This document shows, one piece after another, positions 19,811 through 59,400 of a DNA stretch of 64,000 nt. The stretch is from Raillietiella orientalis (lineage: Eukaryota): the NCBI GenBank assembly GCA_036172245.1, contig JAYWIR010000044.1, positions 1,364,001-1,428,000 of the forward strand, in the 5' to 3' direction. Numbering within the stretch: the first letter of the stretch is position 1; each line of letters begins with the position of its first letter. Under the pieces are notes generated by a model, which worked only from the letters and a program-made list of their open reading frames with translations, searched no databases and had not been told where the DNA came from. A program made the position numbers and the translations under genes.

Positions 19811-20100
19811 TTTGTCACCCGAGTCTGCCCATTTATTATAAAAAATTATTATAAAAGTCGTCTACATTACAGATTAGTGGTTGAACACTTGGTTCTACCA
19901 CGCGCGAAGGACTTGCCAAAATCCGGTACTCAGAGCGGTGAGGTCCGTTCCATCGGCGGTAAAAAAAAGAGGAAACAAAGGGGAGGAATTTGTTAGGGAG
20001 GGTAGAGTAGGGAAGGGAACACTGTTTCCCTGGAGGAGTCCTCTGCATTCCTTTTAGGATGCCAGGAAGTGCTGTTTAGGCATTACCCAGGTAGGGCAAT
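19811..20100 (-). mobile_element. Family A 3' UTR and terminus
   Basis: Sense-strand aataaatgggcagactcgggtgacaaa (partly deleted terminal motif) preceded by a pyrimidine-rich UTR. Confidence 0.55.
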
Positions 20101-20799
20101 CTCGGCGCAGTCCTCAAAAAGATCGTCGTCCAGTAAATGGCGTTCCTGACATTTTGCCCTCTGCTTGTCGCGTGCCAGCATGCTACAAATCCACGGACAC
20201 AGCAGATAATTGCTCAAGACTCTGCTGACGACAGATCGGTACTCCGGAGGAGGCATCGAAAAATGTCCCTTGGTTCGCCCTCCAGTTTTCCTAGGATCGT
20301 CGAGGGACGATTCCAAAGTGGTCGAAGGGCAAAACGGTCTTCCAATAAGTGCGGAAGGTCTCCTTCTCGTCGCACTTTGTACAATGGGCATCGAAGCTCT
20401 TCCAATCCTCTCCAGCAGCAGTGCGTTCGACCTCTTAGTCCCTGATGATGGGATCACCGCGATCCATCTAGAATGCCATGAGCCCCCAACTGCATCCGTT
20501 ATATGAGGAAACCGTGGACTCCTGCAGAGAGAAAGTTCGCCTGCCGGATAACCGAGGTTATCGAGGCTCAATGGGAAATGACCTCGCCTGGTGGACAAGA
20601 CCAATCCCGAAGACCTTGCTCGGGGCCCGCGAGGATGAGCGAAGTTTCTCTGCACTCCCTTAGGAAACGTCGAAACTTCTGGATTCCCGAACTACATCAC
20701 CGCGATTTCCTGAAGAGGCGCTTTTCCCAGAATGGGGGGATGAAAAAATGAAAAAATAAGGGAGGGAAGCGGCAGAAGTACTCTAGACAGCGGCCCGTT

Positions 20800-21660
20800 C
20801 CTGCATGACGGAATTTGCCGTCGAGGAAAGGGCCGAGAGCCAACTCGGCCTTCCAAGCCCCACCTTGGCTACTCTGCGCCATCGAGTAAGTGGGGAAACA
20901 CCTAGCCCGGTGCACTACGAAAGTTCTGGTCAACTCCCTGCTTCCAGGAAAAGCGCTTTCCTGGCGTGGGCTAGATCTCTGAATGTGACCTCGGAGGGAC
21001 TCTACTGTCCTTCCCATGCGGCGACAACATGATCTGGTTATGTTCTTGCGTCCGGGTTTCCTCTGAAACAAACGCATGCACCACGTGATGAGGGAAACTG
21101 TTTCTGCATATTGCGCCAGGAACTGCCAGTGAGCTGCAGAGTCATCGGTCCTTTGTGGGGGAGGCTCCTTGATCCAAAAAAAACGCCGGCTGAACTGCTG
21201 CGCCGCTTCTTCACGCGAGAAGATATCTCGCCTGCCGCCGTGACCACAACCTTGTGCTGCGTTTGCCAGCATCTTCATGGCCCGGTACTTCTCGCTGGAG
21301 CGGCACCAGAGGCAGCGAAAGGCTGCCTGCACTGGCTATGGCCTTCCTGAAGAACGCAAGCAGGCATCCTCGCCTGAAACCGGAAGTCAGCAGGAAAATC
21401 ACTAACCTCGCACGGAGGCTGTAGAAGAGAATCAGCAATCTCGGTGTTCCCATTCTTATCGAGCAATTATTTATTTGTTTATCCCTGTCCCCAATCAATG
21501 CTGCGGATAATTTCTTCTTTTGTCCTGCGAGTAGGAGACCCCCTACTGTTGAGCTTCCTCTCGTTTGTTTGTCTGTTTTGACTCCCAAGGAACTCCCTGT
21601 TCCTTATTTTTTTGCGACTTTAATCAAAAAAGAAATGCCTTGCTGCAACCGGGTGAAAAA
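20800..21660 (+). mobile_element. Family A L1/Tx1-like 3' fragment
   Basis: C-terminus 'LAMAFLKNASRHPRLKPEVSRKITNLARRL*' and terminal motif aagaaatgccttgctgcaaccgggtgaaaaa (21630-21660). Confidence 0.75.
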
Positions 21661-22090
21661 AGCCTTCTGAAGGCAGGCCTACCTCGCTTCTGCTGCGCAG
21701 AAGTCGCCAAACGGAACGCCAAGGTTTGAAGCACCTGCTCGTGGAGATCCCCAGGCGGAACCAGTCGGTCTGCCCTCCCACAACGCACCCACTGGTACGA
21801 CCATACACTTCATTCTGTTGATGCTCATGCCCGCATCCTGATGGATCAGCTCAAAGAAGTCCTCCAACCTAGATGCCGCGGTGGACTCGGGCAGCAGGAG
21901 AAGCAGGTCTTCCTCTCAGGCTGTCATGGACTGCGTTCCCGAGCAGGAGCTAACCACTTTGGCCAGAGTCAAACTGTACTCCTTTAGCACCAACTCAAAG
22001 TATAGTGAAGGGCAGGCGCCTCAGCGCACGGCAACGCCCGTACACGTTACGGCAGCTGAAATAAGAACTGCAGTGGAAGTCTGAAATGCT
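21661..22090 (-). mobile_element. L1/Tx1-like RT fragment
   Basis: 'YFELVLKEY...EEDLLLLLP...LEDFFELIHQDAGMSINRMKCMVVPVG', homologous to the RT at 59099-59383. Confidence 0.8.
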
Positions 22091-25499: not shown

Positions 25500-26057
25500 G
25501 CAGCACTACGATCTGCCGCTAGCCGGCAATCGAGGCCAAGCCCGAAGAGGTGGAGAACGCCACCAGCGATGGCGCAATGGAATTAACGATCAATACAAAC
25601 GAAGATCACGACGCTGCTGCCCTCTTCCCGAAACACGAGGAGGTGGCGGCAACTTGTCAAAAAGAGAAAGCCGAAAGGAAGGCCGCGATGTCGCAGAAGC
25701 ACGAAGAACCACCAGAAGCGGCGAGGAGGAACGCATCCGCTCCAGGAAAGGAATGCATCCTCCGCGAAAGACGGAAGCGTGCTGACGAGTTCCCGGGAAT
25801 CGTTCGTTGAAGAAACATGGTGAGAGAGAGGCAAAGGAAGGAAATGTCCGTCCTTCCACATCCCCTTCCCTTCTGACTAACGAGCTGGAGTCGACCCGCC
25901 CTCTTCCCAGAGGGTACTCGCCTCTTGCCTGCATGGCCTGTTGGAACATCAATGGGCTGCGCAACGACCTCAAGAGACGAGATGTAGCCCTGATTTCCTT
26001 CGATCCGACGCCCTTCCAAGAGATTCACACATGTCTCGGCGGAAGAAGTCCAGAAAA
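25500..26057 (+). mobile_element. Tx1/L1-like ORF1 tail and ORF2 APE start
   Basis: Charged low-complexity frame, then 'MACWNINGLRNDLKRR...FQEIH'. Confidence 0.7.
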
Positions 26058-27050
26058 TTTGTCACCCGGTCACGCCAGGCATTTATTCGAAAGATGAGCA
26101 AAACTTCTGGAAGCCACCAATTTTGACCCAAAAATAACAGAAAGTTCAAGAGGATGGTGCACTCCGAAAGTCCGGAACGAATGGATGTGGATGATAAACA
26201 AAAATTCAGACAAAAGTACGGTAGGCAGGACCAGAAGTCTTTGGTTTCATCCCCGTGCCTTTATGTGCAGCCAAGAAAAGTCCTGAACGGGAACGGGAAC
26301 TGATTTAATAAAAGAGGAAGGCTGACGAGGACAGAGGTCACAGGCTTGGTGCCTTCCTTCTTTATAGAACCGGCACAGAATGCTGCCGACCTCCACCTCG
26401 ACTTGCTCTTCTAGGCGAGGCTACCTAGCAGCCGCCCTCACATAGGCAGCTGCCAGGTGGATGGCCTCCCTCCGCTGTCCTTCCTTCTCCGAGGCGTGAT
26501 GCGGACCATGACGGTGGTGCAGGCCCGACTCAGGCCAGGCTCTCTTCGCCATCACTAGGCCTGCCGGGATTCCGCTGCGGCGGATCACGGACGGGTGTCT
26601 TCCAGGTGCAGCAGAGCTGCAGCCGGCCTTCGCCTCAGTTTGCTGAGGCCACCTCAGCTCAAAGACAGGTGCGGAGGGATCGACCCCATCGACCCGCACC
26701 TGGCACAGCCCGGGAGCGCTTCCCCGTAGCGCTGATTGCACTGAATCTTCAGCAACAGCTCGTGCTGCCAGTTAGTAAGGGGCGTGGACGCGTTCGAATA
26801 CAAGGGAGGACCAATAGTTCTTCGGGGGCAGAGCCTCAAAGTTCACTCCTCTGAGGGAGCGGAGTGGCGTCATCCACCAGTTCGCACGTCTTCCAGCCAC
26901 CCGGGAGTTTCGCCTTTCCTGCAACGGTGTAGGAAGTCTTCCACCTCGCCGGTTGAGCGGCGCTGCTTCGGCAAGCGGAGTAGCGGACATTAAAAAGTTA
27001 CTCGAGTCCTGCAGTACCACTGCCGAAGGATGGCCGGAAAACTCTACGGA
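26058..27050 (-). mobile_element. Family A 5'-truncated copy
   Basis: Zinc-finger region, C-terminus 'EAIHLAAAYVRAAAR', terminal motif at 26058-26087; core 26251-26625 nearly identical to 51923-52297. Confidence 0.8.
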
Positions 27051-27052
27051 GC

Positions 27053-27660
27053 TTTTCCACCCGGTCACGCCGTGGCGTTTATTTAATAAATCAAAAAGCA
27101 TCCCGGAACGCAGTTCTCGGACATATGCAAAAATAAGCTAAGGGTGGGATCCACTGTCACGCAGGCCGGACATTCTAGAATTCCAGAGCGTGAGGGAGGG
27201 GACAATAAATGATAAAAGAGGGAAGGGTAAGGACAGGTGCCTTTGATATGGTCACTCCTTTTTCCGTAAAGTCCGGAGCGAGAAGGAGGGACAAATAACA
27301 TAAATAAAATAAAGTGGGAGATAAGGGCAAAGTCTTTTAGCACCAGTCCCTCCTCCTTAATAAGATCCAGAGCTCTGAGTTGGGACAATAAATAAAAATG
27401 GAGGGAAAAGGGAAGATGGTTCTTTGGCATGTGCAGACCCTTCTCCTAGGTTCGGTGCTGAAAGGCGACTATCTCCGCCCTGACTCCTTCTTCGAGGAGA
27501 GGCCACTTAGCAGCCGCACGTAAGGAGGCAGCTGCCAGATGGTGGACCTCACTTCGCTGCTCTGCGTCTCCATGACGTAGCAACAGTGGCGCGATTGCAA
27601 CGGATTGTTGCGAATTCCGCGCCACCTTAAAGCCCGTGAAAAAGGGCCGCAGCAAGTCCT
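27053..27660 (-). mobile_element. Family A short 3' copy
   Basis: ORF 27446-27655 'HLAAASLRAAAKWPLLEEGVRAEIVAFQHRT*'; terminal motif 27053-27083. Confidence 0.8.
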
Positions 27661-27669
27661 TTGCGGTGT

Positions 27670-30200
27670 CTTCCGGGATGATGGAGATCCTTTTTGTTTT
27701 TGTTTTTTTGTCTTCGCTGCTTTCCTTCCAGTTTTTTCTTTCAGGTTTTCATTTTCTTTGGTTCGCCGAGTACCTCAGGAACCGTCGCGCGCCTGGCGGC
27801 GGCTCACGCAGCTCTTTAACGCTGTTCCACGCCAACCGAGGGAGCGGGTAATTCTTCAAGGTAGGGGGTATCCCAGGAGAGGACCATCCTATGAATCCAG
27901 GAGAGAACTCCGGAGAAGGGAGTCCGGTTCCTCTCACGCCTGGGGAGGGATTCCCGACCCTCCACCCTGGTTGTCTCCGAAGAGAACCAAATGGAATCAC
28001 CTTCCTTACTCTCTCCGGGGGGATCCCCGAAGGGTCCGCCCAGAAGGGAACCCGCAAGGAAACAGCTCCTTCCGGGTCCTTCTCAGAAGGGCAACCCGAA
28101 GGGAGCGGCATGCTTCTTTGCACTTTGGAGAGGTGACATCGTTAATCAACCTGCTCCATGGAACGAGACGGAGGGTTCTTCCCGAAGGGGGGTCCGCTCC
28201 TTCGCACAACTGTAAAGGGAACCCCAATCCTTGACTCAGTTCCTGGAAGAATCCCGGAGGATCTACTTCCAACCCTGGTTACTCATCGGAGCATCCGGTT
28301 TGAACCGCTATCCTGCGGCGCCGCACCTGAATGAATATAGGCCAGCGTCATCTTGCAGGAGAAACTGGAACCCACGACACACCCATCTCTCGGCGCATCA
28401 TCTCTCTTTCCGAGTATTCGAACCCACGACGCCTGGTGCCAAGAGCAGAGACCGCAACCACGTGGTTGCGGGCACGGCAGTCGAGCAAAAGGTGCGGAAA
28501 CGATTCGATCGTACCCCACCTCGAGCAGTTCAAGGAGACAACTCCCCTGGCAACGATTCATTGCGACTGATTACACTGGAATCCTCAGTGTTAAAACGGC
28601 AGCAAGCCCTGTTTCCATCGTAGAGGGAACACCGAGGTGTCCAAACAAGCAGGGGGAACCATTAGTTCTTTGAGGAACACAGTTGACAGTTCGCTTCTTC
28701 CAAGAAGTCTTTCAACCTGAGTCGCCAGAGTGGCAGCATACACCAGTTCCTTTGTCTTCCAGCCGCCAAGGAGCTTGGACTCTCTTGTGGTGGTGTAGAA
28801 CAAGTTCCACCATGCTGGTAGGCAACTGTCATTGCTTGCCCTCAGAGCACACAGAGCTGAGGCAAGAGGTATGGAGGCTAGGCGATTACACTTCTTGTCT
28901 TTCATGACATCTTCCAGAGGATGGCTCAGCAGAAGTCGCAGTCCTCGAAGATCTTTCAGGCGCATTCCTATGTACCGTAGCCATGACATAATGGCCTCCT
29001 GCGTCCATGCATCGAAGTCCATAGGGTCAGATTCTTTCCTGGTGTGCCGAAAGTGCGGCAGCAACGAAAGCAGTCCTGTTCTGCTGATGCAGCGCCGAAT
29101 AAGAAGACGCGCAGGTAGACACCAAGGCATACACCAAAGTTTGGCACACAGTGCGAGCATTCGGAAGTGCACCTGCAGTCCAATCTTCTCGACGGTAAGG
29201 ATATCCAAGCCAGCGTCTTGCGAGGCATCACCAAGTCTTTCATTCGGATCCAGGACTTTGCAGCTCCCCACAAGATTTTGATTAAAGGCGCTGCGCTCGG
29301 ATCTTGACCAAATAAGGGGACAGGCACACAAAAAACAAGGGGCAGAGGAGGGGGACAACGAAGCTGTTTTAGATGGAGGGTCACTCGCCACCCAGGAACG
29401 GGCCAAGATCCCACTCTGCCTTCTAAAAGCAGTCCGACCACGCTTCTGCATTGCAAAAGTTGCCCAATGGAACGACAAAGTACTTGAAGCACCTGCCTGT
29501 GGGGATCCTCAGGCAGATCCAGTCAGACGTGAGGAAGGCCTCACGTCGCTCACAGGGATGACCACACTCGTACTCCTGTTGACACTCACGCCGGCTTCCC
29601 GACGAATCAGCTCGAATAAATTCTTGAGAATGTTCGCCAAGATGGACATGGGTAAGAGGAGAAGCAGGTCATCTGCATAGGCTCACGACTAACGTACCTG
29701 AACAAGAGCTCGGCACATTGGAGAGAGTCAGCCTGTATGCCTTCAGTACCAACTCGAAGGAGATGCTGAAGATCAGAGGGTTTAACCTGTCTCCTTGCCT
29801 GATGCCTCGCCATGCCGATATGCCGTACACGTGGATGCTGCTGAAAAAGATGCAGGTGATCGAGTGGCACCAGGAGGAGCTCAAGTAGGACAGCAGGACT
29901 GCCGGAAGACCGAGACTTTGCAAAAACTCCAGAAGAAGGCAGCGAACGCTTTTTGCAATTCGACTGCGACCGCCAAGGCTTCCGGAGTTTCTTCTCGCGG
30001 CCGGATCCTATGCCTGTGGTCGGTAGCAGCCCTCACTGCTGCTCGACCATCCAGCGCATCGCGATACTGCAGCCGGAGCCATGTCTGCTCGAAAAGGTGC
30101 TTCTCATTCAGGGACTGGGAGACAATTTCCAGCGTAGGTCTGCTACGGAGAGAGGGAGAAGATCACAGATTGGGGCCATCACCATGAGAATAGGACTTGG
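27670..30200 (-). mobile_element. Family B L1/Tx1-like element (RT, thumb, zinc finger, extension, spacer)
   Basis: 'RGIRQGDRLNPLIFSISFELVL', AYADDLLL after a frameshift (~29700), ORF 28591-29478, 'NCSRWGTIESFPHLLLDCRARNHVV...RRRGFEY'. Confidence 0.9.
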
Positions 30201-30337: not shown

Positions 30338-32690
30338 TTTCTCACCCAGTCACGCCGGGGCGTTTATTCCGTATAAGGTTATACAAAATGAGATTATATA
30401 AAATAAACCAGTTGGGGACCAGGTTCCCAACCAACGACTAAACAAAGATCGAGAGAATTTTCCCTGGCACGCATTCCAGAATAACAGAGTTCGAAACTCC
30501 GTGAAGGATCGGGAAAACAAACAAAAAAACAAAACAAAAAAACAACGTGGGATGTGAGCAGAAAAGGGTCTTTGGGATCTCTCCGGGAGACACCAGGGTA
30601 GAAACACTGGCACCGAGAATTCAACAGAGCGAACAGGTTGGGACAAGGGTGGGTGAGAGGTCACAGGGATCACCGGAGTACACCGTTCTTAGACGTCTGT
30701 GTACCGGCGATGGATGCCGGCGATATTCTCTTCCACCTCTTCATGAAGGCAAGACCACCATGCGGCCTTCTCTATGGATTCAGCTGCAAGCAGGTAGGCG
30801 TCCCTTCGTTGCGCTGACAACTCCAGGGCGTAGCGGGCCATGACTATGGCACCAATGCAACACACACGATCACGATTACCGAACGTCCGTTTGCTCTAAG
30901 GAAGCGTCGCAGCACATCAATGACAGTGCCTGTCTGCGGCATGATGATTAAAGTCAGCCCTCGTCACAGTTCACGAAGGTCACCGCAGTCCAGCAAGAGG
31001 TGCGGGAAAGACTCGATCTCTCCGCACCTCAAACAGTTTGACGAAGCAGCTCCCGCGGAAACGATGCTTCGCAGCTGATTACAATGGAGACCCCAGTGAG
31101 AAACAGTAGCACATCTTGTTTCCATTTCAAAAGGAACACGGAGCTGTCTAAACAAATGGATGGAACCACTACCTCTTCGGGGGGCACACTTAAATGTTCG
31201 CTCCACTGAAGCAGGCCCTTCGCCCGATTCCGAGGCGGCGGCTTGCACCAGCTCCTTTGTCCCCAAGCCGCCAAGGAGCTTAAACACTCTTGCAGTTGTG
31301 CAGGAGAACTTTCATTCCGCCGGTTGACAACTGTCATTGCTTGCCCTGAAGGCAGACAGCGCTGCGGCGAGGGGTGTGGAGGACAGACGATCCGACTTCT
31401 TGTCCTGCATGACTTCGTCCAGGGGATGACTCAGGAGAAGTTGCAGGCCTCGAAGATCTTCCAGGCGCATTCCTTCAGAATCAGCCCTTGATGCAAACGA
31501 TCGACGACTTCGCCCTGTTCACCTCCAGGCTAGTCCCGTGGCGTAGCAACTCGAAGAAATATTCGAGCGCGTACACTGGGATGCACCCGAGGAGTAGCAG
31601 CAGAAGATCGTCTGCTCAGGCCGACACGGCAGGCGTGCCAGCACACGAGCTCGGCGGGGTAGCCAAAGTTTCTCTGTATGCTCTGAGCACCAACTCGAAG
31701 TAGATGCTGAGGAGCAAGGGGTTCAGGCTGTCTCCCTGCCGGATGCCGCGGCGCACTGGCACACCGTACGTGTGCCGGCCGCTGAAACAAATATTTATTA
31801 ACGCGTTGCGCCAGCAGGAGCGCAGGTAGGACTGGAGCACGGCCGGGAAACCCATGCGTTCAGGAACTCCAGGAGTACCTGGTCGACGCAGTCAAATGCT
31901 TTACGCAAATCGACCGCGACCACAAGGGCTCCCTGCGTGTCCTTCTCGCCACCAACCAGTTGTTTTTGGTCAGAGGGGAGCGCAAGGTTCCCTCGACCTG
32001 TCGCTGCAACTCGTTGTCGCAACTGCCACCATGTGCTGGTGGGGAACAGGTTGGCTTCCATAGTTTCTCCAGGAACAGCGTAAGTATGCTCCGGACTGGT
32101 GCCGGGATAAGACGCATTGCGCGCAAGTTTTACTCCTTCCTATAGGCAGAGGCACTTTTGCAGCGTTTTCCCTGCCGGAGGGCGTTCCAGCGATCAATGA
32201 GTAGATGACCAATACCCCAACGAGTCATTCACGATGGAGTGGATCATTTCCTTCATCAGGAACCTCAGTAGGAGGAAAGCACAAGGCGAAATTCCATCGA
32301 TGCTTACCCCCCTCCGGTGGAGCGGCTGTGAACGCTGATTCGAGGAAGAGGGAAGGTGCCCACCTCCTCCTGATCAGCAAGAGTACCTCCGCTGCCGAAC
32401 GTAGGAGACCTCTGTAGCATTGGCAACCGGAGTCCGATTACCGTGATGTGCGGACGCCAAGCTGATGGGGAAGTTTTGGACGGAACGCCTGGAGCGGTTA
32501 GCCGAGACGTTCATCATTCCGGGCTTGCTCTGTCCCAGAACAGAGCACTGACGCGAACCTCTTCCTGAGCAGCTCCTGGATCCGGTTGCAACTAGGACTT
32601 GCGCCGGCCGCCCAGAGGAATGCCGAATGCGTTGAATGTTGCTTCTCTCCTGCGGCATCGACCGCAGCTCTGGTGCTGCTCACGCGGTGT
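30338..32690 (-). mobile_element. Family A element, internally deleted (EN remnant, RT, zinc finger, 3' end)
   Basis: 'VAVDLRKAFDCVD', 'RRGIRQGDSLNPLLLSIYFELV', 'HWGLHCNQ...NCLRCGEIESFPHLLLDC'; terminal motif 30338-30368. Confidence 0.9.
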
Positions 32691-33165: not shown

Positions 33166-33195
33166 ATCGGTGACAGAGGAAAGAGGTCGCTCATA

Positions 33196-34140
33196 TTTGT
33201 CACCCGGATATGCCGGGGCATTTATTAATCTAATTCCTATTAGTTAATAAAGCCTCTTAATAGGTTTTTGTGGGAAAACACTTGGTTTTCCCACGCTGGT
33301 AGACGTGTCGGGAGCCGGTGCCGAGACCGGCTAGGTCCTTTCCCGAGGCGCAGGGGAAGGGAAAACTAAAACAAAAAGAAACAAAAAGAGAAATAACGGG
33401 GAGGGAAACAGTTATATGGGGAGATGGGGGGCAGAGAAGGGATCCCTGGGCGCCTGGGTTGGTCCTCTGCATCGTGTTCAGGAGGTCGCTCACGTAAGCC
33501 GACAAGGATGCCGCCTTCTTTCGCGCCTTCGGCGGAGTTTTCTTAACGCGAGCTCTCCTTAGAGGGAACGGCCTTGACCTTCGCCTTAAATTTCGTAACC
33601 GACTGCGGAATCGCGAGTTCTTTGCCGACGCAACCTACGCCACTCCGGTCTGCCACGACTCTGGAGGACACCTGCGGATCGACGCGTCTTCCGTGCCGCC
33701 CCACAGGAAGCGGCTGCATCATCCCTGAGCTTCTGCTCGACACCTAACCGGAAGTGGAAGCGAAAATGTTCTTGTTCCTCTGGAGAGAGCTCTGCGGGCT
33801 GCTCAACCTTCTTTTCGCTCCTCCTTTCCCTCCTTACCTTCATCCACCCTATTTCCTCCCACTGCTGTTCCTCAGAGGACTCGGGGTGTAGTTTGATGGT
33901 GCTGACGAGTGAAGTTGCGGATGATTCCTCCAACTCCACCCTTCATCTTTAAATTTTTTCATTTCTCCTTCCCTCTCTACAGGTGACTGCCCGCGGCCGG
34001 GTCTTCTGGCTGCATTGCAGACACCTGGTGGGGAGGCGACGTTTCTTCAGGTGTTCCACCTTCAACGCAGTAGCTGCACGCCTTTCTCTTTCCCACATGC
34101 CACAGGGAGATGCAGCCACCGTCCACCCGCAGCATGCAAC
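33196..34140 (-). mobile_element. ORF1-like region joined to a family A 3' end
   Basis: Frameshifted knuckles 'KACSYCVEG.HLKK..PTRCLQCSQ' (~34090-34000), charged tail, then cctgaacacgatgcagagga...gatcccttct (family A stop region) and terminal motif 33196-33226. Confidence 0.6.
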
Positions 34141-34148: not shown

Positions 34149-35060
34149 GTTGACACTCGGTCACTCTGGGGCATTTGTTTAAAAAATAAACATACACTCA
34201 AGTGGCAGGATGTGTGATCCTGCCACGTTATACACGGATGCCGACAACCGATGTCCAGGCCGGCGAGGTCCGCCTCGGCAGCAAAGATGAAGGAGATACA
34301 AACAGAAAGAAAAATAAAAGCAGAAATGCAAACAAAAGTGGAGGGTTCTGGAAAGTATCACTGGAGGGCACCCTCTGCAACCTTGCAAGCATGCCGGCAA
34401 GTTCCATCCTCAGGATCCCCAAATGGGGCCATCTTGACTCTGTCCTCAGGAAGAAGACCGCAAAATACGTGGCGTCCATGTGGTTCTGACCTCCACTGGC
34501 GTAGCTCCATGCAGCCACGATCCCGCGTAAGCAGCACAGTGCGGCTAGGGATTCAACCGGCGTGAGGGCGTCGCGCTAGAAGAGGTGCTTTCAAAGGTCT
34601 TTGGGGTTGCCCTCAGGGGGATCCCTGGGGACGACCCCAGAGACGCAGCAAACTAGGACTTTTGCGGGAACGCTTTGCCGCAGGGACGCGGCAAAGAGTT
34701 CTCACATGGGATGGAGGGGTATAGAATCCATGAGCAGGTGTGAGAGGGACTCTCTCGCGTTGCGCCTGCAGCAGTTCGAGCGTACACTCCCTGGGTTCAG
34801 TGGTATCGGCGAGCATTACACGGGAGGTCCCAATGCAACAGCAAGGTCGCTGACTGCTGCTACTTCAAGAGGACAGTAGCACTATACCAACACGCTGGGG
34901 GCTACTTCACCTCCTCCAGAGGAAATTTGTATTAATTCTCCCCAGCGTAGCAGTCCGTTTGGAGGGACACCCGGGGTCATGGCGCCCGCCAGCTACCGAG
35001 TTGTCTACTCACCCAAATGTTTTTCTTTGGTGCTTCGTAATACGCAGGTCACTTCCCATC
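34149..35060 (-). mobile_element. Family A 3' copy
   Basis: ORF 34228-34518 'ESRWPHLGILRMELAGMLARLQR'; terminal motif 34149-34179. Confidence 0.8.
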
Positions 35061-35099: not shown

Positions 35100-35730
35100 G
35101 GAGGGCATCACTGGGATGAGGGTGGTGAATCATGCCACAGCAGATTGTTCCCCAGAATCTCCCTCAACGGCTGACGAGAGTATTTTCTGTTCCGGAGTCG
35201 GACAACTCGCGTCGGAGACCTTGTGGTCGCTGTCTCCTCTCATGGAGCCACCAAGCGTCGCGGGCTCGAAAACTCGAGAAGAATCGACGCCGAGATGGGG
35301 GTGCGTCGTGGGTTTCAGTTCCTTCCGCAAGATGACGCTGGTTGGCCTCTTTTAGGATGCAAGACTGTTAAAACCACATCACCTCAATGAGTGGTCGGGA
35401 TTGGGAGTCGACCCCTGATCCTTCCTGGAAACAAAACCAGGGACTGGGTAGTTCCCCTCTGGTTATTCAAAAAAACGGACCCTCGTCTCGTACCACGGAG
35501 TACGGGTGTTAAACTGCTCCAGATTGCGCAAAGTGCTTGCACAGTGAGGGGATCGAAGGAGCAGCGATGAGTCTCCTGAAGATGGTTTTGATAAAACAAA
35601 AGAGTGGGTGAAGGAGCTCACGCACTCCGAATACGGGCGAAGAGGATGGCGCGGACATTGCTGTCGGTCTTCGCTCTTCCTCTATGCAAGCTGGCAGAGA
35701 AGGAAAGCAGGAAGAGGAAAAGAAGCGTTT
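35100..35730 (+). mobile_element. Family B 3' fragment
   Basis: 'RVGDLVVAVSSHGATKRRGLE', 'RKMTLVG', gggagtcgacccctgatccttcctggaa block. Confidence 0.65.
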
Positions 35731-48678: not shown

Positions 48679-49200
48679 TTCTGACACTCGGTTGCCACGG
48701 GGCATTTATTTATATAAAAAATAAACCTACAGGTCAGTAGCAGGACGTCTGATCTTGCCACGTTGCCTATAAATACGAGAAGGAACCTGCCGAGAACTGG
48801 CATGCAGGCCAGCGTGGTCGCCTCGGCAGCAGAGGAGGAGAAACAACAAAGAAAAATAAAACAAAAAATGTATAAACAAAAAAATTGGGAGGGTTCGGGA
48901 AGGGATCACCGTGTGCTGGAGGGCGTTCTCTGCATCCTTGTAAGGATACCGGCAAGTTCCTGTTTCAGGACTCCCAGAGTCATCCTCATGGAGAGGACAG
49001 CAAAATAGATGGCCTCCCTGTCGTACTGACCTCCTCTGGAGTTGCTCCATGCACCCACGATCCCATCGCGTGGGCAGCAAAGTGCTGTTAGGGATGCGGT
49101 TGGCGTGAGAGCGACTCTCTGGAAGAGGCGACTTAGAATGTCTGGAGATTCCACAGGACGCGGCAAAACGATTTGTTGAAGCGCCACGCGCGCAAGCGCC
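48679..49200 (-). mobile_element. Family A 3' copy
   Basis: ORF 48906-49187 'TALCC..GIVGAWS...KQELAGILTRMQR'; terminal motif 48679-48710. Confidence 0.8.
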
Positions 49201-49549: not shown

Positions 49550-51330
49550 AAACATCACCACGATGGACAGGTTCCACTGCGGTGATCGTGTCTCTCGGTT
49601 ACCTGGGAGAGCAATCGCCGCTGACCACCCAGTTTGTCCACAGCCTCGTCGAGGCTTCCTTTGGTTCCATCTTCCAGTTTAAGCTGCCACTGGTGCACCC
49701 TTTTCCATTCCTGCTACTGCCACCGCCACAGGTAGCAGGGAGTGGCCAAGGTGGATGGGCACCTCGCCTCCTGCCTGCGCAGTGCCCTGCAAGCCCTCGG
49801 TCCAGCCTGCTGCACCCTCGGAACCTTGGATTCGCCATTTTTCCTTTCGGAGAGGAGCTTTCGATAGGTGAAACTCCTGTGTACCTCCCCTTCGTAGGTT
49901 CCCTTCGGCGCAGGTGCGCAATAGAGGACCAGCGTGGCAGAACTTAACGGTGGAGGGCTCTGAGAAAGAAGGGGTCTGAACTTTAGTGCAGGGAGTCCGA
50001 GGGGGAGTTGCGGCAGCTTTGACACCACTCACCTCCTCGGACGAGGTTTGCACCGACATCCACAACGGATGAGAACCCAACCATCTGTTTCCAGCCCGCT
50101 AGTCCTGGTAGCGGCGAACTGCTTGGGCGACATCGGTATCGCGGAAGCGCGCCCGTGACTGCCTTCCGAGGGCTGGGAGGGCTCCTGACACGTTCCTCGA
50201 TGGCGAGTTCGTCTTCCCGGTACTCTTCGTCATCGGGAACACCTTCGCCACCTCTTATTCTCACCTTTCGCTTTCTGCCTTTCTGTCTCCTCCATTCTGG
50301 TTTTCTTTTTTTTTGGGGGGGGGGGTTCGTTTGCCTGGGGGCTCACGAACTCTTCAAGTTCGAAAAAGACCATTCTATGGGTTCAGGAAGACTCAGGAAG
50401 AAAGGGTACATTCCCAGTACGCTTGGCAGGGATATCTGAAGGAAACCTCTTCCTTATTTTCTCCGGAGGACTTCCCTGGAGGAGGCCACTCCTTGTTTCT
50501 TCTCTGAAGAGAACCCGGAAGGATCCGCTCCTGGAATTTTTTCTTCAGAGAGAGCCAGCAAACAAACCATTTCTCTGAAGAGAAGCTTGAAGAGACTCCC
50601 AATTTTTCAGAATGGTCGCTCCCTGAAGAGAGCAGCGCGTCTCTTTGCACACTGGAAAGGTACCGCTAATCCATCAGCTCCATAGTGGAGTCTCCTTGGC
50701 ACAGCCGGAGGAGAAACCCTGAAGGAAACCGGGCTCCTCGATTCCTGGAAGGATCCCAGAGGGTCAATCACCAAATCCCAGACACTCAACGAGGCATCCC
50801 CGGTTTTCGGCTTACACCTGTGTCGCACCCAAAACCGGTCAGCGTCATCTTGCGGAGGGAACTCGAAAAACAAGACGCACGCCTTTCTCGACGTCGATTC
50901 TCCGACGGAGATTCGAACCCATGACGCTTGGCGCCATGAGCTGAGACCTCGTTCACAAGACCGCCGCCAATGCGGGCCCGATTCTGAAGAGATCCGGGCG
51001 CACTGTTTCCTGAGGAAGGCATTGTGGGGCGCTGAAAGATCGCGGATCCGCCTTCAACACTTTGTGGTGCTGCGCTAGAATGCTGGCTTGGACGTTCTGA
51101 CCGTGGACAACATCGGAGCCGCAAGTGCACTTCCGACAAGTAGTGCTCTGTGCCAAACTGTGTGCTACCTCTTGGTGCGCTCCTGAACGTCGTCTCAACC
51201 TTCGGCGATGAGTCAACACAGAAGGAACGCTCCAGTTGCTAATGCGCTTCCGTTACGAGATGTGAAGATTTGTTTTCCCGCTAAGACAACTGGTCTCGCT
51301 TCTGGAAAGCTTCCCAGTGGATCTTTGCCT
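49550..51330 (-). mobile_element. Family B copy: ORF2 remnants, spacer, then ORF1-like region
   Basis: 'VSAHGAKRHGFES...RKMTLTG', 'IDPLGSFQE', spacer 50270-50770, then 'KLPQLPLGLP...' and 'NPRFRGC...AGHC'. Confidence 0.7.
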
Positions 51331-51710
51331 AACTGCTTCGAGTTGCTGGAACTGCGCTGCCCTTCTCGAAACGAAAGACAGAGGCTGTCTTTCGGTTCGA
51401 GCAGCGCTCTCTTACTTGGAGAATACCTCCAAGGAGTTGCTGAGATGACAGACTTTCGGCAAGCGCTGTGGCCGCAACGAGATGCCGTATCCGCTCCACG
51501 GTCACAACTCGTCGTGTGCTGCAGCCTCGGGCACACGGGCACATGAGAACGACTGCGAGGTGATCTTACCCGGAGAAAGTGGAGCCAGAGACGGCCGGTA
51601 TTCTACGCAAGCTCTGGAAAGAAACGGTCGGCTGCTACCACAGACATCTGTTGTTTTCTGTTTATTTGTCTCCCTCTTCCTGACACTTCAGACTTCTCCA
51701 GTAACTCTAT

Positions 51711-52740
51711 CACTCACAGGGTCACGTCAGGGCGTTTGCTTAATAAAAATGTACATATCAGGAACTCAGTTCCCAACCAAATAGCTAAGAATAAGTTTCA
51801 AGGAGAGAGTGCACCGATACGCAGATCGGTCATTCTATAAGCCTGGAACGAATGGGAGGGAATGATAAGCAAAAATGCAAACAAGAGGACGGTAGGAAGG
51901 ACCAGATGTTTTTGTTTTCATGCCCCGCGCCTTTATGAACAGCCAAGAAAAGTCCTGAACGGGAACGGGAACTGATTTAATAAAAGAGGAAGGCTGACGA
52001 GGACAGAGGTCACAGGCTTGGTGCCTTCCTTCTTTATAGAATCGGCTCAGAATGCTGCCGACCTCCACCTCGACTTGCTCTTCTAGGCGAGTCTACCTAG
52101 CAGCCGCCCTCACATAGGCAGCTGCCAGGCAGATGGCCTCCCTCCGCTGTCCTTCCTTCTCCGAGGCATGATGCGGACCATGACGGTGGTGCAGGCCCGA
52201 CTCTGGCCAGGCTCTCTTCGCCATCACTAGGCCTGCCGAGATTCCGCTGCGGCGGATCACGGACGGGTGTCTTCCTGATGCAGCAGAGCTGCAGCCGTCC
52301 ACCGCGCAGTTTGCTGAGGTCAATGCAGTCCTAAGGCATGTAAGGCGGAACCGATTCTGCCGACCCGCACTTAGCACAGTTCAGGGGTGCAGCTCCCCTG
52401 GAGGCGAGGTTCCAGCGCCGATTGCGTTGGAGTTTCCAATGCAGGAGCGGCAGCACCCGCAGCAGCTGAAGCCATCCACATAGTCCCTTTGCTTGTGGAC
52501 GAGGAGTGGCAGTGGCCACCCGCTCGCTCGCTGTCCATCGGCTCTAAGGTTTTTGGTCTCTCCCGCAACTCCCACCCCGCCGGTAGGTAATTGTCCTCTC
52601 ATGCCCTGAGGGCAGACAACGCAGCGGCAAGAGGTAAGGCGCCAGGGTGGAAAGTTTCTTCGAGTCCTGCAGCACCTTTCCCAAGAGATGACGAGCGAAC
52701 AGGCGCAGCGGACGATCTTCTACGGCGCGCATTCCCTGGA
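51711..52740 (-). mobile_element. Family A 5'-truncated copy
   Basis: 'LHWKLQRN...LNCAKCGSAES', 'EAICLAAAYVRAAAR'; degenerate terminal motif 51711-51741; homologous to 26058-27040. Confidence 0.8.
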
Positions 52741-53259: not shown

Positions 53260-55070
53260 GCCATGACTGGCATTCTGCGTCGGCTCTGGAATGGAGGAAT
53301 GGTCGACGCCAAAGACTCTCCGTTTCGTCCCTTCCTTTATCTGCGTTTCTTTCCCTCCAGCTCCGGAATATTACCGTGAGCGACCTGCCAGCGGTGAACC
53401 CTCTCTCTAAATTTGATTTTTGGAGATTCCTGTTTCGAGGGTGGCGTTCCCGACTTCCCTGCCCATTTTTTGAGCATCGCTCGGCGTTGCTTTGGATGTG
53501 TACGGGACTTTCCAAATTGTTGCCGCGACGCCGGAGGTAGGATGAAGGGATTTAACTTACTAAGGATAAACACGTCCTGACCACTGGAAGATCACAGCAG
53601 GATATCCTGCCTTCCCACGACCTGGGATGAGTGAAGACCGGAGGTGGTTGAGACCAGGACTGCAACCCTGTAAAACGCTGATGTGGGCGACTGCCATCGT
53701 GCCAGGAAATGCTCCGGAGCTGCCGGGAGGGAAACCGTCCGTTCTCCCTACTGGACTCGGCAAAGGCCTCCGGAGTCCCCACTGGCCGCCCAAGCCGATT
53801 TTCTTTTTTCTCCAATCCACGAGGCTCTTCCTATTGGCACTTTGGATCCGACCGGTGGATGAAAACGCTGTCTCCGGACGCATATTTCTCCTCTTCGGCA
53901 GGATGCTCCTACAGGAATCCACTTCCTCCTGCACTTGGAAGTCCATCGGTAAACTCAAGTGACTCATCAGCTGATGGCTTTCGGCTCCGTCTTCAGCATC
54001 CACTTAGTCATCGCGGACAGCGCGTCGCGTTTCGGGAGCCGCGTGCGGCTCAGCTTGGCGTGCCGTCCCGCTCGAGACGGATTGGCGCACGACGGCTCCC
54101 TGTTCTACGTCTCCTGGGAACCCGGATCTTCACGGATCCACGGCCTCTGCACTCCTAGCGGTGCTGCCACGAGCAATTGCCTTGGAAGCTCATCCCCGCG
54201 AGACCGAAACGCCTTTTCGTAATGGCCGCGCTCGTCCTTTCGTGTTGACCACCACCGCTTCTCCAGGTGGAGGAAGATGCACGAGGACGAGGCAACTGAT
54301 GATGGCGGGGGAAGGCTGGGGGAAGTGAGCATTCCTAGAGGTCCATTCTGCTGGGTGCCGCCGGGCAGCTGGATCAAGTTCCAGTGGAAGAGCATGCGGA
54401 AGCGTTTCCACGACAACGCACTGTCCCCCTTTGGCGGAAACAGGACGCTTTTCTGCTGGTGCATTGGGGTTTATACTGCAACCAGCGCGCGCACCTGGTT
54501 TCCAGGGGAGTTGCGTCCCCGAACTGTGCAAAGAGCGGTGGAATCGCTTCCTCATCCGCTAATGGAATGCGGTGCCCTTCAGGAGCTGTGGCGGCGGCTG
54601 TCTTCAGCGCTCCTGCACCCCAGACACACCGCAATGGATTGTATGCGCCGCTTCCTCACGCGTGGTGGTCTTTCTCTGGGAGCGGTCGTCGCAATCATCT
54701 TCTGCGTCGGCGCCAATGTCAGGGCCCGCCACGTATTGCAGATGCGAGAGGTCCCAACATCGGTCCCCGACACTGCAGCCTGCAACCTGCAAATGGCTGC
54801 CGGATGGCCACACCTTGGAGCAGGAGTGAGGACGGAGATTGCCAGCATTCACCGCCGGTTCTGAGAATAGGAACGCTTGAACTGCATACCCCTATCCCCA
54901 CCCTCCCACCCTATTTATTTATTTATTATCCCCTCCCACCCGTTCCGAACTCTCAGTGTGCCCGACCTGCGAGCCGGGAACCCTCTTCACCATGTTCTGT
55001 TCCCCTTGCCTGGGAGCACAGTTCCCAGGTGATATTATTAATAAACGTCCCGGCGCATCCAGGTAATAAA
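53260..55070 (+). mobile_element. Family A element, internally deleted
   Basis: EN-like 'SKFDFW...FEHRSALL', 'HWGLYCNQ...SPNCAK', 'ESLPHPLMEC...AAGWPHLGAGVRTEIASIHRRF*' (stop 54864); terminal motif 55040-55070. Confidence 0.85.
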
Positions 55071-55299
55071 CGACAACGCACTGCGCGCACTCTCATCAAG
55101 CATCCTTCCCACGGAGAACCTCGGGACTCATGGCAATGGGTCCCTCTCCATTTCGAGAATGGGTATCCCTTGAGCTACATCTTCACCTTACACCTAATCT
55201 ACCATCTCCTCGTCGCTCCCGGCACCCTCAGGAATATCCTTAAGGAATCCTCGCCAGCACGTTCCCCACCCCCTCCCTTGGCTGAGATGGGGGTTGCGG

Positions 55300-57400
55300 C
55301 CGCCTGCAGGTCTGGGGTTTCTCTCGGCACAAGAGACTCTCTACTCACACCGCGAGTGGATGAGTGGTGCGTGTAGCTGTTCATGGGAGCGGTTTCTGCA
55401 AGATGGCGGCGTACTGGTAGTCAAGGGAGGAGAGCAGAGCAGGCGATCCGGGATTTGGAGAATCCTTTGGATGGGTCCGGAAGACCGGATCGAACCTTTC
55501 GGCACCCAGATCCACCGGAAAAGCACTCAGAGCATCGTTCCGTAGACCAACCGCGTCGTTTACCATGACAGCAGGGACTCTGTCGCCTTGGAGATCCTCC
55601 TGCACCGCATCAGGATCCTCCTTCAGACGGTGGGTTCTTGAACGTTCGGCGGAAGTTTTTGCCCGAAGTCAACAAGTAGTGGAGCCGCTGAAGTAACGCA
55701 TGCGGCCGTCTCATTGGACAAAAGTGCTCGGCGGCAGGAATCCCTGGCAACGTGGATGCGAGGGACAGTCCAACACTCCCGAACAGCAGCGCCATCAGTT
55801 GTCTGGGGAATTACCCCCTTGCAGGGATACTAGACGATGTGGATCCTCTTCCCCACATACCGGCGTGTGACCATTGAGGACTTTATAGTCGGTATCTGGA
55901 GGAGGAGGAAGAGGAAGAGGCGCTTCGAGGTCACCCAGTCCACTGGCTGGTGGAAAACCCACTGCCTGGAGAACGAGGTTACTCCAGTGGTTCCAGCTCA
56001 GCGTCTTCAAAGACGAATGGAGTTTCTGAGGATTTCCAGGAAGAACTCCGAGATCCTGTGCTTCCTCGCCGTAGAAATTCCGTCTTCCGTCTTCGGTGCC
56101 AGCAGACCTCCTTCTTGCTGGAGCACTGGACCCTTCATCGAAGCGAGGAACGCCACCACGCCTTGGCAGAGAGGGTGCTAAAGGAATGCTCCCATTGCAA
56201 TGTGGGATGCCGCGTCAGGAATGAGAGGGAATCGCTGAGGCACGTCAGTCCCTCGACGCCGCCCCAAGAGACCGACGCTTGGTGTCTGCGTCGGAGAGCA
56301 CGTGGTTGAGGATGTCCGCGCGTAGCACGAAGCATCGCGGGTTCGAATCCCACCCGGAGAAGGATGAATGCCGAGAGATGAGTGCGTCATGGTTTCAGCT
56401 CCCCCAGCAAGATAACGCTGGTTGGACTGCATTCGGGTGCTGCATTGGTGGCTGTTGAAATCAGATGCCCTCAGTGAGTGGCCGAGACAATGGGAGTCGA
56501 CCCTTCGGGATCCTTCCAAGGATCAAGGATTCCTTCGGGCTTTCCCTCCAGTTGTTCTAAGGAGACATTCCCTAACTATGGAGCTGGTGGATCGATGACA
56601 CCTCTCCAAGAAGCGCACTGTTCCCTTCGGGGAGGGACGCTTCCGAGAAATTGGGAAGCGTTTCTTCGAGGTTCTCTTCAGAAAAGAAAGGAGAGGTTTC
56701 TTAGCTGGCTCCCTTCAGAGAAGAAATTCCAGGACCAGATACTTTCCAGGTTTTCTCCAGGATAGAATTAGGAAGAGATTCCCTTCGGAATTCTCTTCGG
56801 GGACACCAAGATGAAAAGGTTCCCTTCGGGGATCCTTCGCAGGCGTGAGGGAATCGGACTTGCAGCCCTTTTTGTACTCTCATAGGGCGATCTCCTCCTG
56901 GGGTATCCTCTGTCTTGAAGAATTAGACGCACCCTCGGTTGGTGTTAAAGAACCGCGTGAGTCGCCAGGCGGACGACGGTCCGCGAGAAACTCAGCGAAC
57001 CAAAAAGAAAAAAAAAGTAAAAGGCCGGAAGGAATGCAGCGAAGGCAGAAGAGCTCGGAAGGATTCCCATCATCTGAGGGGAAGTGAATAGTTGCATGGA
57101 AGCAAAGAAGAGGAAGCATTGGAGGTGTGGGCAACCCGGGAAGTGACGGACGCTGCGACCCTGAGTGTCTCCACCCACGGACTTGTACTCTGGGGAAAGC
57201 TGCCTGACATCCCTCCAGAGAAGGAGGTGAAGCGACCTCAGCATTTTGGAAGGGCTCTCTTTCTCGAGTGGCGGGAGTTGGCGCTGCTGGCGTTACATGG
57301 AGGAATGCAAAGCGCACCTCCACCACTGTACGTGGGTCGGGTAGGGAAGGAGCATGGACGCTCAGAGTGCCACATGTCCAGGAAGAAGGAGATCCTCCTG
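55300..57400 (+). mobile_element. Family B copy: ORF2 3' part, spacer, then ORF1-like region
   Basis: 'CRVRNERESLRH', 'KHRGFES', 'GVDPSGSFQ', CTTCGG-rich spacer, then 'KLPDIPPEKEVKRPQHFGRALFLEW...PPPLYVG'. Confidence 0.75.
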
Positions 57401-57414
57401 CTCCTGCTGCTAGA

Positions 57415-59400
57415 TTTTCACCCGGATTTCTCCGGGTCGTTTATTAAAAAAAATAAACTTTATGGTAAAAATGTCAGTGGCTGCAGCAACGCTGCAGCCA
57501 AGCACGAAGAACCACGGAGCCTGCCAGGTCACCGGTTCTCAGACCGTTACGCTCCACCAAGGCAGCAGGGGAAGGGGGAAAAACAAAAAAAACTAAACAA
57601 AAAGAAAAAAAGAGTGGGAGGAAACGGGAAGGGATCACTGTTGCTGCTAAGGCCGCATCATCCTTCTCAGGATGCCGGCAAGCTCTTGCTGCATTTGAGG
57701 ATCCAGGTGGGGCCATCGCGACGCCCTCCTCAGGAATTGGGAGGAGCACTGGATGGCATCCTTATTGCGTGGTTCTCCCGTAGCCGTGCTCCATGCGGCG
57801 ACGATCCCGCGAAGGCAACACAAGGCCGTTATCGAGGCCGCTGGCCGGAGGACGTCGGCAACGAAGAGGTCTTTTAAAGCGTCCCTGGGGTTGCCGCAGG
57901 GGATTCCGATGGCCGCGGCAAAGCGGAACCAAAAGGGCCGAAGGGCAACACAATCCACATGCAGGTGGGGGAGGGACTCCCGTTCCCCACACCTAACACA
58001 ATTGGGATCCACCGCTCCCCAGGTCCAATGATGTCGGTGGGCATTGCAGGGGAGTCCCCAATGCTGCTGCAACAGTAGAGCCGACTCCTGCCATTTTAAG
58101 GGAGGGTGGAAGTGTTCATGCGCACCGGGGGCCACTTCAGATGTTCAATCGGAACATCGAGCAGCGCTCCCCAACGCAGAAGTCCATTAGGAGGCGTACT
58201 CGGGGTCGCAGTGTCTGTCAACTGGCCCGTCTTCCACTCTCCTATCTTCTTCTCCTTCCCGGAGATTTTTATCCTAACCTCCCACTTCGCCGCAACATCG
58301 CTGTCCAGATCTTCCATCAGGGAGGGCAGCGCAGCAGCGAGGGGGGTTCTTCCTGACCACGCGCGCTTCTTCGGATCCTGTAGGATCTCTAGGAGCGTGC
58401 AACTTCTGTAGCATCCAAAAAGGAAACGCCGTTCCTGTTGGGAGCGTTGCATGCCGCACTGTGCCCACGTGCAAACGGTTTCCTGCAACCAGGCACTACC
58501 GTTCGCGGGGAGACAGGTGATCCATCCTTGGTTTTTTCGAACCAAGGGGGCCACCCTCCGCAGCTGGAGCCCACATCGGTTGATGCGGCTTCGATGGAGC
58601 GCAAGAAACGACGTAAGTCCCGTCTTGCCGGTGGCTTGCTGGAGAAGGAGACGTGCAGGGACGCACCAACAGGTGCACCACAACTCTGGAACAAGTGCCG
58701 ACATTCGGAACTGGAGCTGAAGCTCCAGCCGCTCCAATGTCAGGAGACCGAGACCGCCGTCCCGACACGGAGCGCACAAGTACTTCAAGCGGACTCGGGC
58801 CCTTCCGTTGCCCCAAAGGGCGATACGGAGGAGGTTCCTTCGTCCGCTTTTTGATCCTCTCTGTGGGGGGGCAAACAAAAAGCAGGGGGCGGAGGAGAGG
58901 AGCCGCGAACGTGTTCCAAACCGCGGCCCGTTCAGGCAGGAAAAACCTATCGCCTCGGAACGGGCCGATCGCCGTCTCTACTTTTTGGAGGCAGCCGGAC
59001 CACGCTTCCGCAGGGGAGTAGTCCCCAACGGCTACACCAAGGTACTTGAAGTACCTCACCGTGGGGATCCCCAAACGGACCCAGTCCTGCTGCCCTGCTC
59101 ACGCCGCACCAACTGCCATCACGGACGACTTCGTCCTGTTCATTGTAAGTCCGGTTCCCCGATGCAGCAGGTCGAAGAACTCCTCGACCGCCGCAGCCGG
59201 GGTGGACATAGGGAGCAGCAGCAGAAGCTCGTCCGCGCACGCTGGAACCGCAGGCGTACCGGCACAGTCGCGCGGCAGGTGCGCCAGAGTTTCCCTGTAC
59301 GCTCTCAGTACCAACTGAAAGTAGGTACTGAAGAGCAAGGGGCTCAGGCTGTCTCCCTGCCGGATCCCACGCCGCACCGGCACGCCTTTGCACGCCTAAC
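57415..59400 (-). mobile_element. Family A element, best-preserved copy (RT to 3' end)
   Basis: 'RRGIRQGDSLSPLLFS...ACADELLLLLP', 'YFKYLGV', 'LCAPCRDGGLGL', 'HWGLPCN...NCVRCGERESLPHLHVDC', 'SRWPHL..ELAGILRR'; terminal motif 57415-57445. Confidence 0.92.

Follow-up and report, generated by a model that had tools for sequence, protein, structure and literature searches.

A conserved terminal box and covarying hairpins at the 3' ends of a putative L1-superfamily LINE family in Raillietiella orientalis

Twelve 3' ends of one LINE family

A 64-kb stretch of the Raillietiella orientalis genome (assembly GCA_036172245.1, contig JAYWIR010000044.1, positions 1,364,001 to 1,428,000), hereafter the window, was examined for the remains of a long interspersed element (LINE) family whose copies all end in the same short motif. 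The window has approximately 53% G+C, contains no N and no tRNA genes, and exhibited observed/expected ratios of 0.84 for CpG and 0.49 for TpA. No Pfam match was obtained at E 1e-3 for its 64 stop-to-stop frames of at least 150 amino acids (aa), which gives it the appearance of repeat-rich eukaryotic DNA, and comparison of the window with itself detected old repeats of 65–75% identity. The motif, consisting of AATAAA and a GC-rich sequence (together the terminal box; Table 1), was located at 12 sites. A first-pass annotation, made by a model from the sequence alone, had listed about 12 diverged copies sharing an end motif of ~30 nucleotides (nt); its consensus and coordinates proved accurate, and the motif was present on the indicated strand in 12/12 intervals.

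Only three of the 12 sites lie within three mismatches of the 27-nt consensus, while 0 were expected from 100 shuffles. A profile built from the 12 sites and searched with nhmmer recovered exactly those 12 in the window (E 4e-10 to 8e-5), and the next match was found at E 0.21. When the 1500 nt upstream of each motif were compared all against all with nhmmer, homology was colinear up to the 3' end in every copy. The copies range from 288 nt to ~3.1 kb, and such variable lengths with a common 3' end indicate that they are 5'-truncated. The nhmmer grouping gave two subfamilies, G1 (s19811, s33196, s34149, s48679, and s57415) and G2 (s26058, s27053, s30338, s51711, s55040, s38920, and s21630). 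As far as can be judged from the sequence, the 12 sites are the 3' ends of a single LINE family that is old and diversified and belongs to the L1 superfamily (L1/Tx1).

The L1/Tx1-like type, which the first-pass annotation had proposed, is supported by the coding remnants. A 293-aa frame (58099–58977, -) has a single relative among 1.84 billion protein representatives, namely P0001 (E 1e-44, 54% identity), which is a 619-aa RVT_1 protein (E 5e-24). The best match of P0001 in the PDB was human LINE-1 ORF2p (E 7e-40 to 5e-39), followed by R2 at 7e-17 or weaker, a weak discriminator as the other clades are without a solved structure. Its full-length relatives are ~30% identical, and most of them carry Exo_endo_phos, RVT_1, and zf-RVT, with PF03372 among the domains. 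Mapping P0001 onto the window located reverse transcriptase (RT) remnants, matching at up to 76% identity, upstream of three of the tails, as well as several orphan fragments. Pfam comparison of 128 shorter frames gave only sub-threshold matches, to RVT_1 at E 6.5e-5 and E 0.02 and to zf-RVT at E 0.035 and E 0.14; the better one of each lies upstream of the tails. The region of the last open frame before the s57415 tail was also matched by the zf region of P0009, which carries PF13966 (tblastn, E 1.7e-4) and is one of 28 full-length relatives tried; at ~30% identity, these 28 detected only 2 copies by tblastn.

P0001 is the only member of its cluster, a singleton from a 2870-nt contig and the sole close relative, and the host lineage is barely sampled in protein collections. 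In a prokaryote-only contig collection, P0001 matched one distant locus at 26% identity. Two side observations concern the coding remnants. In s30338, an RT segment corresponding to P0001 residues 97–203 (32311–32624, +) is inverted with respect to residues 166–245 (31861–32097, -), an arrangement that resembles a twin-priming 5' inversion in which the two segments overlap. Further, six pieces of the window are similar to each other at 67–77% identity (4145–4431, 17954–18219, 28192–28466, 35208–35464, 50742–50948, and 56279–56564), one of which lies inside the s27053 copy, ~1.1–1.4 kb from its end. The six are probably orphan ORF2 (open reading frame 2) fragments of this LINE family, present in both orientations without tails of their own.

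The terminal box and the hairpins upstream of it

The 3' untranslated region (UTR), which is ~230 nt in G1 and longer in G2, begins with a pyrimidine-rich tract, followed by hairpins H1 (~100–135 nt from the end) and H2 (~40–100 nt from the end), an AATAAA-containing A/T-rich stretch, a GC-rich box of 19–21 nt (CCCGG-N5-CCGGGTGA), and 2–4 A. The last 330 nt of the 12 copies were aligned together with 30 nt of flank using MAFFT; here and below, all statistics on structure and conservation refer to 12 related copies of two subfamilies in one 64-kb window, which are not independent of each other. Mean pairwise identity was 0.67 in the 31-nt box, whereas the ten 31-column blocks upstream of it gave 0.41–0.51 and the downstream flank gave 0.30. 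The majority consensus sequences of G1 and G2 were the same at 25/31 box positions, at 0.19–0.26 of the remaining UTR positions, and at 1/30 flank positions. Within the motif, the majority base was matched in 66/72 cells of AATAAA, 48/60 and 51/60 cells of the two stem arms, and 40/60 cells of the loop. The loop hence varies more than the stem, as the first-pass annotation had remarked (arms 99/120 versus loop 40/60, Fisher P 0.023).

Such a box might be conserved through recent shared ancestry or gene conversion among neighbors, with no selection involved. The copies are indeed close together, and s26058 and s51711 (26040–26400 and 51690–52070, -) are ~97% identical over the first ~170 aligned columns, after which identity falls to ~55% towards the 3' end; the high-identity body could be a gene conversion or a partial duplication. 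However, this high-identity stretch excludes the box, the adjacent UTR is far more diverged than the box in the same copies (0.41–0.51 versus 0.67), and the agreement between the G1 and G2 consensus sequences covers 25/31 positions in the box but only ~0.2 of UTR positions. An origin of the conservation in ancestry or conversion alone is hence very improbable.

Both H1 and H2 keep pairing while their sequence changes. H1 is a 6-bp stem with a loop near CTGCGT; in the MAFFT columns of 11 copies, 80% of 65 cells pair, versus 14–50% when the partner is slid, and 12 cells show double changes versus 0–4 slid, a value reached by 1/1000 shuffles. H2 has 7–12 bp. Its stem is perfect over 10 bp in s33196, s34149, and s57415, with a different sequence in each, and over 7 bp in s21630; that of s55040 reaches 12 bp, of which 3 are G-U. 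The H2 counts were made in ungapped 25-nt frames of the 12 copies, centered by hand on the hairpins (MAFFT shifted the register on those frames), in which 77% of 132 cells pair, versus 27–46% slid and 52 ± 3% shuffled (0/1000 reach the observed value). Double-change cells numbered 34 versus 8–19 slid, and the frame score was at least 9 of 11 in 6/12 copies, with a null probability of 0.010–0.025 (binomial 2e-7). RNAalifold also predicted H1 and H2 from the five G1 copies. On the alignment used for this prediction, 90.4% of 115 cells of the structure pair versus 28–46% slid, and its covariation score is 0.429 versus 0.08–0.18 slid, which 0/500 shuffles reach. When the last 145 nt were folded, z-scores of -4.8 (s57415), -4.0 (s33196), -2.9 (s34149), and -2.2 (s55040) were obtained, followed by -1.35 and -1.2 for the next two copies. 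The four best include the three copies with target-site duplications (TSDs), which are presumably younger. Across H1–H3, 32 G-U cells were counted versus 17 A-C cells (P 0.044), and this excess favors a fold of RNA or of the sense strand. The strong covariation of H1 and H2 indicates that the 3' UTR is structured.

Some further observations were made on this region. The 19-nt H1 is cleanly deleted in s26058, a loss pointing to hairpins that may be prone to deletion. An A/U hairpin between AATAAA and an upstream TTTATT appeared in the folds of the best copies, but not above composition-matched shuffles (P 0.05–0.92 per copy), and was rejected. For G1, RNAalifold also predicted a long-range helix, with one covarying pair, in which the segment following H1 pairs with the 3' arm of the box; it was likewise rejected, as its duplex energies were no better than those of shuffles (mean z +0.15, 12 copies).

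For the terminal stem within the box, five Watson-Crick (WC) pairs are formed in only 2/12 copies, s33196 and s57415, where the first-pass annotation had seen a perfect stem; three further copies have four WC pairs and one G-U pair in the same register. Of 57 cells in the aligned register, 82% pair, but compensatory change was found in 0/5 pairs, and shuffling the 3' letters among the copies gave pairing at 84%, with 1000/1000 shuffles reaching the observed value. This stem thus pairs because the box sequence is conserved and palindromic, without covariation, and its folding is possible. The first-pass annotation had spoken of a hairpin placed after the polyadenylation signal; the conservation of the box above the UTR background stood, whereas covariation of the CCCGG/CCGGG stem did not. 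In terms of the aligned sequences, the box appears firmly conserved, while its dependence on a hairpin is hypothetical. Comparison with Rfam, taken to E 1, matched no family to the 12 sites, and a degenerate pattern of the box gave 0 matches in the prokaryote-only contig collection.

Insertion sites and the terminal A run

Exact TSDs flank s57415, s55040, and s33196 (Table 1), for which the chance expectations are 3e-5, 3e-5, and 2.5e-3, respectively. A weak 8-bp candidate was noted for s27053, and the search found none in the other 8/12 copies. The three exact TSDs are unrelated to each other; they start with TCTAGC, ACGACA, and TGAGCG, which are not A-rich, and begin 0–2 nt after the A run. 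This run comprises at most 6 bases in 12/12 copies, and 2–4 A precede the TSD in the three TSD-bearing copies. As the TSDs adjoin it, the box belongs to the element, not to the target. The short A runs with TSDs directly after them indicate that no long poly(A) was copied at insertion, and the TSD starts, not being A-rich, argue against priming by a T-rich target annealed to poly(A). The first-pass annotation had similarly stated that only a few A follow the motif, which holds for the TSD-bearing copies as well, and that the motif belongs to the element, which is consistent with the adjoining TSDs and with a downstream flank in which no conservation was found (identity 0.30). The copies accordingly exhibit neither the poly(A) copied at insertion that marks the relaxed type of L1, nor, given this flank identity and the unrelated TSDs, insertion into a specific target as in many Tx1 elements.

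The latter bears on the idea that the motif is the host target site of a site-specific Tx1-like element. Many elements of the Tx1 clade are target-specific (PMC4494074), but the TSDs found here differ from one copy to the next and fall outside the motif, homology ends right after the A run, and the motif never occurs in the window without the element upstream. This idea is refuted for the present copies, and we give it practically no credence.

The copies form a nest of insertions, in which 10/12 share one orientation within 38 kb (19811–57445) and several adjoin or interrupt each other. The 5' end of s26058 is ~12 nt from the 3' end of s27053 (a homology test for s27053 nested within the s26058 copy gave no matches), and the end of s21630 is 4 nt away from an antisense RT fragment (21664–22008). 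An inverted box copy of ~20 nt (38901–38920, +), which has no AATAAA upstream, meets the end of s38920 tail-to-tail without any intervening A; a second, extremely truncated insertion or a product of fold-back may account for it. These arrangements speak for a box that acts as DNA, being either a preferred landing site for further copies, which would home to resident tails, or a fold-back primer for the second strand. However, neither the three exact TSDs nor the flanks show any relation to the box or to one another, identity in the downstream flank is 0.30, the G-U excess favors a fold of RNA or the sense strand, and the clustering may merely reflect a repeat-rich region. A role at the DNA level is hence improbable.

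Apart from the LINE copies, the window holds a decayed, full-length 5.8S rRNA-like sequence (7975–8131, -; 44.6 bits, gathering score 42) without an 18S or 28S match in the window, which may be an orphan fragment of ribosomal DNA or a retrocopy. It also holds three pairs of inverted repeats, namely 10866–11661/16709–17504 (796 nt, 96% complementarity), 37317–37592/46197–46472 (276 nt, 90%), and, nested in the latter pair, 41661–42118/44565–45022 (458 nt, 97%). These three pairs are much younger than the LINE copies.

Table 1. Positions of the features of the LINE copies in the window (TSD, target-site duplication; RT, reverse transcriptase; WC, Watson-Crick pairs; GU, G-U pairs).
Feature	Copy	Positions	Strand	Remarks
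Terminal box	s19811	19811–19837	-	5' arm lost by 4-nt deletion; copy ~600 nt
Terminal box	s21630	21630–21660	+	copy ~655 nt
Terminal box	s26058	26058–26087	-	copy ~980 nt; H1 deleted, H2 disrupted
Terminal box	s27053	27053–27083	-	longest copy, ~3.1 kb
Terminal box	s30338	30338–30368	-	
Terminal box	s33196	33196–33226	-	perfect 5-bp stem, loop CATAT; element 33194–33481, 288 nt
Terminal box	s34149	34149–34179	-	decayed, AACAAA
Terminal box	s38920	38920–38947	-	AATGGA replaces AATAAA
Terminal box	s48679	48679–48710	-	
Terminal box	s51711	51711–51741	-	most decayed
Terminal box	s55040	55040–55070	+	element 54424–55069, 646 nt
Terminal box	s57415	57415–57445	-	stem extends to 7 bp, GAAA loop; element 57415–59400, 1986 nt
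H2	s19811	19877–19901	-	9 WC of 11 frame pairs
H2	s21630	21584–21608	+	7 bp
H2	s27053	27099–27123	-	7 WC + 2 GU
H2	s30338	30409–30433	-	8 WC + 2 GU
H2	s33196	33270–33294	-	10 bp
H2	s34149	34202–34226	-	10 bp
H2	s48679	48737–48761	-	7 WC + 2 GU
H2	s51711	51755–51779	-	9-bp stem including 3 GU
H2	s55040	55007–55031	+	8 WC + 3 GU in frame
H2	s57415	57477–57501	-	10 bp, loop GTT
H1	s30338	30462–30481	-	
H1	s33196	33313–33332	-	7 bp, loop CTCGGC
H1	s34149	34247–34264	-	
H1	s48679	48796–48813	-	6 bp; T-A in place of C-G
H1	s51711	51813–51830	-	6 bp; A-T in place of G-C
5' TSD	s57415	59401–59414	-	14 bp, exact
3' TSD	s57415	57401–57414	-	14 bp; starts directly after GTGAAAA
5' TSD	s55040	54410–54423	+	14 bp, exact
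3' TSD	s55040	55070–55083	+	14 bp; first A = last A of box
5' TSD	s33196	33482–33492	-	11 bp, exact
3' TSD	s33196	33183–33193	-	11 bp; 2 nt (TA) after GACAAA
RT remnant	s27053	28960–30135	-	P0001 match
RT remnant	s30338	31060–32097	-	P0001 match
RT and post-RT remnant	s57415	58372–59386	-	76% and 54% identity to P0001
Last ORF2 open frame	s57415	57650–58144	-	C-x2-C-x7-H-x4-C; zf-RVT E 0.035, sub-threshold; stop leaves 3' UTR ~230 nt

Recognition of the 3' end

The choice of template by LINE RTs is understood for only a few elements, and dependence on poly(A) is usually assumed for the L1 group. In the present family, the 3' end is conserved above the rest of the element, and compensatory stem-loops are found in H1 and H2, though not in the box stem. 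Hairpins kept by shape, a box kept by sequence, a fixed end, and the absence of copied poly(A) together make up the stringent-type pattern, which is taken as the most likely mechanism. The copies are thus probably the 3' ends of 5'-truncated insertions that a stringent-type LINE of the L1 superfamily made by target-primed reverse transcription. Its ORF2 protein would bind its own structured 3' UTR, recognizing H1 and H2 by shape and the terminal box by sequence. Synthesis of cDNA would then start at a fixed point right after the box, within the first few A of the RNA tail, and a T-rich primer annealed to long poly(A) would be dispensable. AATAAA precedes the CA/A end by 21–22 nt, as is usual for a cleavage and polyadenylation signal, and CA occupies the expected cleavage position in 5/12 copies; the RNA may be cleaved and polyadenylated at this end. 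With this usual spacing, the 3' end of the transcript and the start of reverse transcription would coincide. A more radical version, in which this L1-superfamily lineage employs no poly(A)-dependent priming at all, and the box after AAUAAA and the two hairpins fix the RT start to a few bases as in R2 or L2, is put forward only tentatively, as we hold it to be rather doubtful.

The same polyadenylation signal offers another explanation, in which the box serves the formation of the transcript 3' end. Together with AATAAA it would set the cleavage and polyadenylation site inside the element, and the short A run would be a by-product of the priming position. A LINE needs such an internal site because downstream signals are not copied, and it agrees with this that AATAAA is the best-kept part of the motif (66/72 cells), that it stands at a fixed distance of 25 nt from the end, that CA is present at the cleavage position in the 5/12 copies mentioned above, and that the box is G/U-rich (GGGUG). 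However, poly(A)-primed RT would copy variable, often long A tails, whereas here 2–4 A are delimited by the TSDs and at most 6 A were found in 12/12 copies, and the covarying H1 and H2 would be left unexplained. We therefore consider this explanation unlikely, while 3'-end formation and RT recognition by the box are not mutually exclusive.

Several observations weigh against stringent-type recognition. The terminal stem lacks compensatory change and, with 5 bp, is weak; a best-of-frame score of at least 4.5 is reached in 15% of random 25-nt windows. The centering of the H2 frames by hand inflates their percentage paired, and the G1 structure was tested on the same alignment that predicted it. 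Fold z-scores lie between -0.55 and +0.95 in 6/12 copies, and s26058 is without H1 and has H2 disrupted. None of the copies in the window extends to the endonuclease or ORF1, and an intact source element was not seen in it. Among the profile matches in the 64-kb window, a small sample, there was no short interspersed element (SINE) or other short element sharing the tail, as all 12 have LINE sequence upstream. Finally, the whole evidence comes from the 12 non-independent copies of one window and two subfamilies.

Eel UnaL2 and zebrafish ZfL2 of the L2 clade are the textbook stringent LINEs, in which the conserved 3' stem-loop is regarded as the recognition element of the RT and poly(A) is absent; R2 likewise requires a structured 3' UTR and starts reverse transcription at a precise point. 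The present family resembles UnaL2 and ZfL2 in its conserved, structured 3' end and in lacking poly(A), but it belongs to another clade, and its tail is oligo(A) after an AATAAA-containing box. UnaL2 and ZfL2 have tails of short tandem repeats, (TGTAA)n, which serve slippage according to a 2013 review (PMC3747384). In silkworm SART1 of the R1 clade, the 3' UTR structure is required and RT starts precisely, though poly(A) is also needed (PMC3472496). SART1 and R2 differ from the present family in belonging to other clades and in being target-specific.

Within the L1 clade, Ohshima (2012) described a monocot lineage in which the last 45 nt show a divergence of 0.144 versus 0.570 elsewhere, and in which a tail hairpin supported by compensatory mutations is shared with SINEs of maize and sorghum (PMC3472496). 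The same work described an L1/SINE pair in Chlamydomonas, found L1-clade families without a 3' repeat in 9/233 cases from flowering plants and 5/15 from green algae, and put forward stringent recognition as the ancestral state of the L1 clade, a view repeated in the 2013 review (PMC3747384). The first-pass annotation had assigned 3' stem-loops to L2/CR1-type LINEs and poly(A) to L1; its division is too sharp in view of these structured, conserved L1-clade 3' ends in maize, sorghum, and Chlamydomonas (PMC3472496). Monocot lineage 1a (LINE1-1_ZM, with ZmSINE2, ZmSINE3, and sorghum SINEs; PMC3472496) shares with the present family an affiliation to the L1 group, a conserved end, a compensatory hairpin, and a stringent-type interpretation. 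However, the monocot lineage ends in poly(A) and has SINE partners, whereas the present family ends in 2–4 A, with no SINE seen in the window. In the monocot hairpin, moreover, the stem varies while the loop (UCU) and the 3' flank (CGAG) are conserved, whereas here the box is conserved in sequence without covariation, and the covarying hairpins are located further upstream. Chlamydomonas L1-1_CR is also of the L1 clade, and its 3' end of ~80 nt is a recognition module shared with its partner SINEX-3_CR (PMC3472496), but both of these end in poly(A), unlike the present family. Human L1 relies on long poly(A) and T-rich target sites (PMC3472496), and a stem-loop in its 3' UTR has been proposed computationally (PMC5135761). 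The present family is similar to human L1 in that ORF2p is the closest solved relative of P0001, in its 5' truncation and TSDs of 11–14 bp, and in that one copy may carry a 5' inversion; it differs in that no poly(A) was copied and the TSD starts are not A-rich.

The family is therefore another, rather clear, case of a known but rare kind, and is distinguished by having almost no tail and an invariant box that follows AATAAA. The literature searches, which did not extend to Repbase and Dfam, turned up no account of this motif, and the family may already be catalogued in those databases. For annotation, the box provides a sharp marker of the 3' ends of this family, and the RNA module of ~140 nt would constitute a compact substrate for tests of the ORF2 protein. 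The combination of an L1-type RT with a conserved box, covarying hairpins, and no copied poly(A) adds a case for an old, recurrent recognition of the tail in the L1 clade (PMC3472496). If the poly(A)-independent interpretation is true, the family would add to the maize and Chlamydomonas cases a clean natural example of stringent recognition within the L1 group, and it would give a handle on how proteins like L1 ORF2p read specific RNA.

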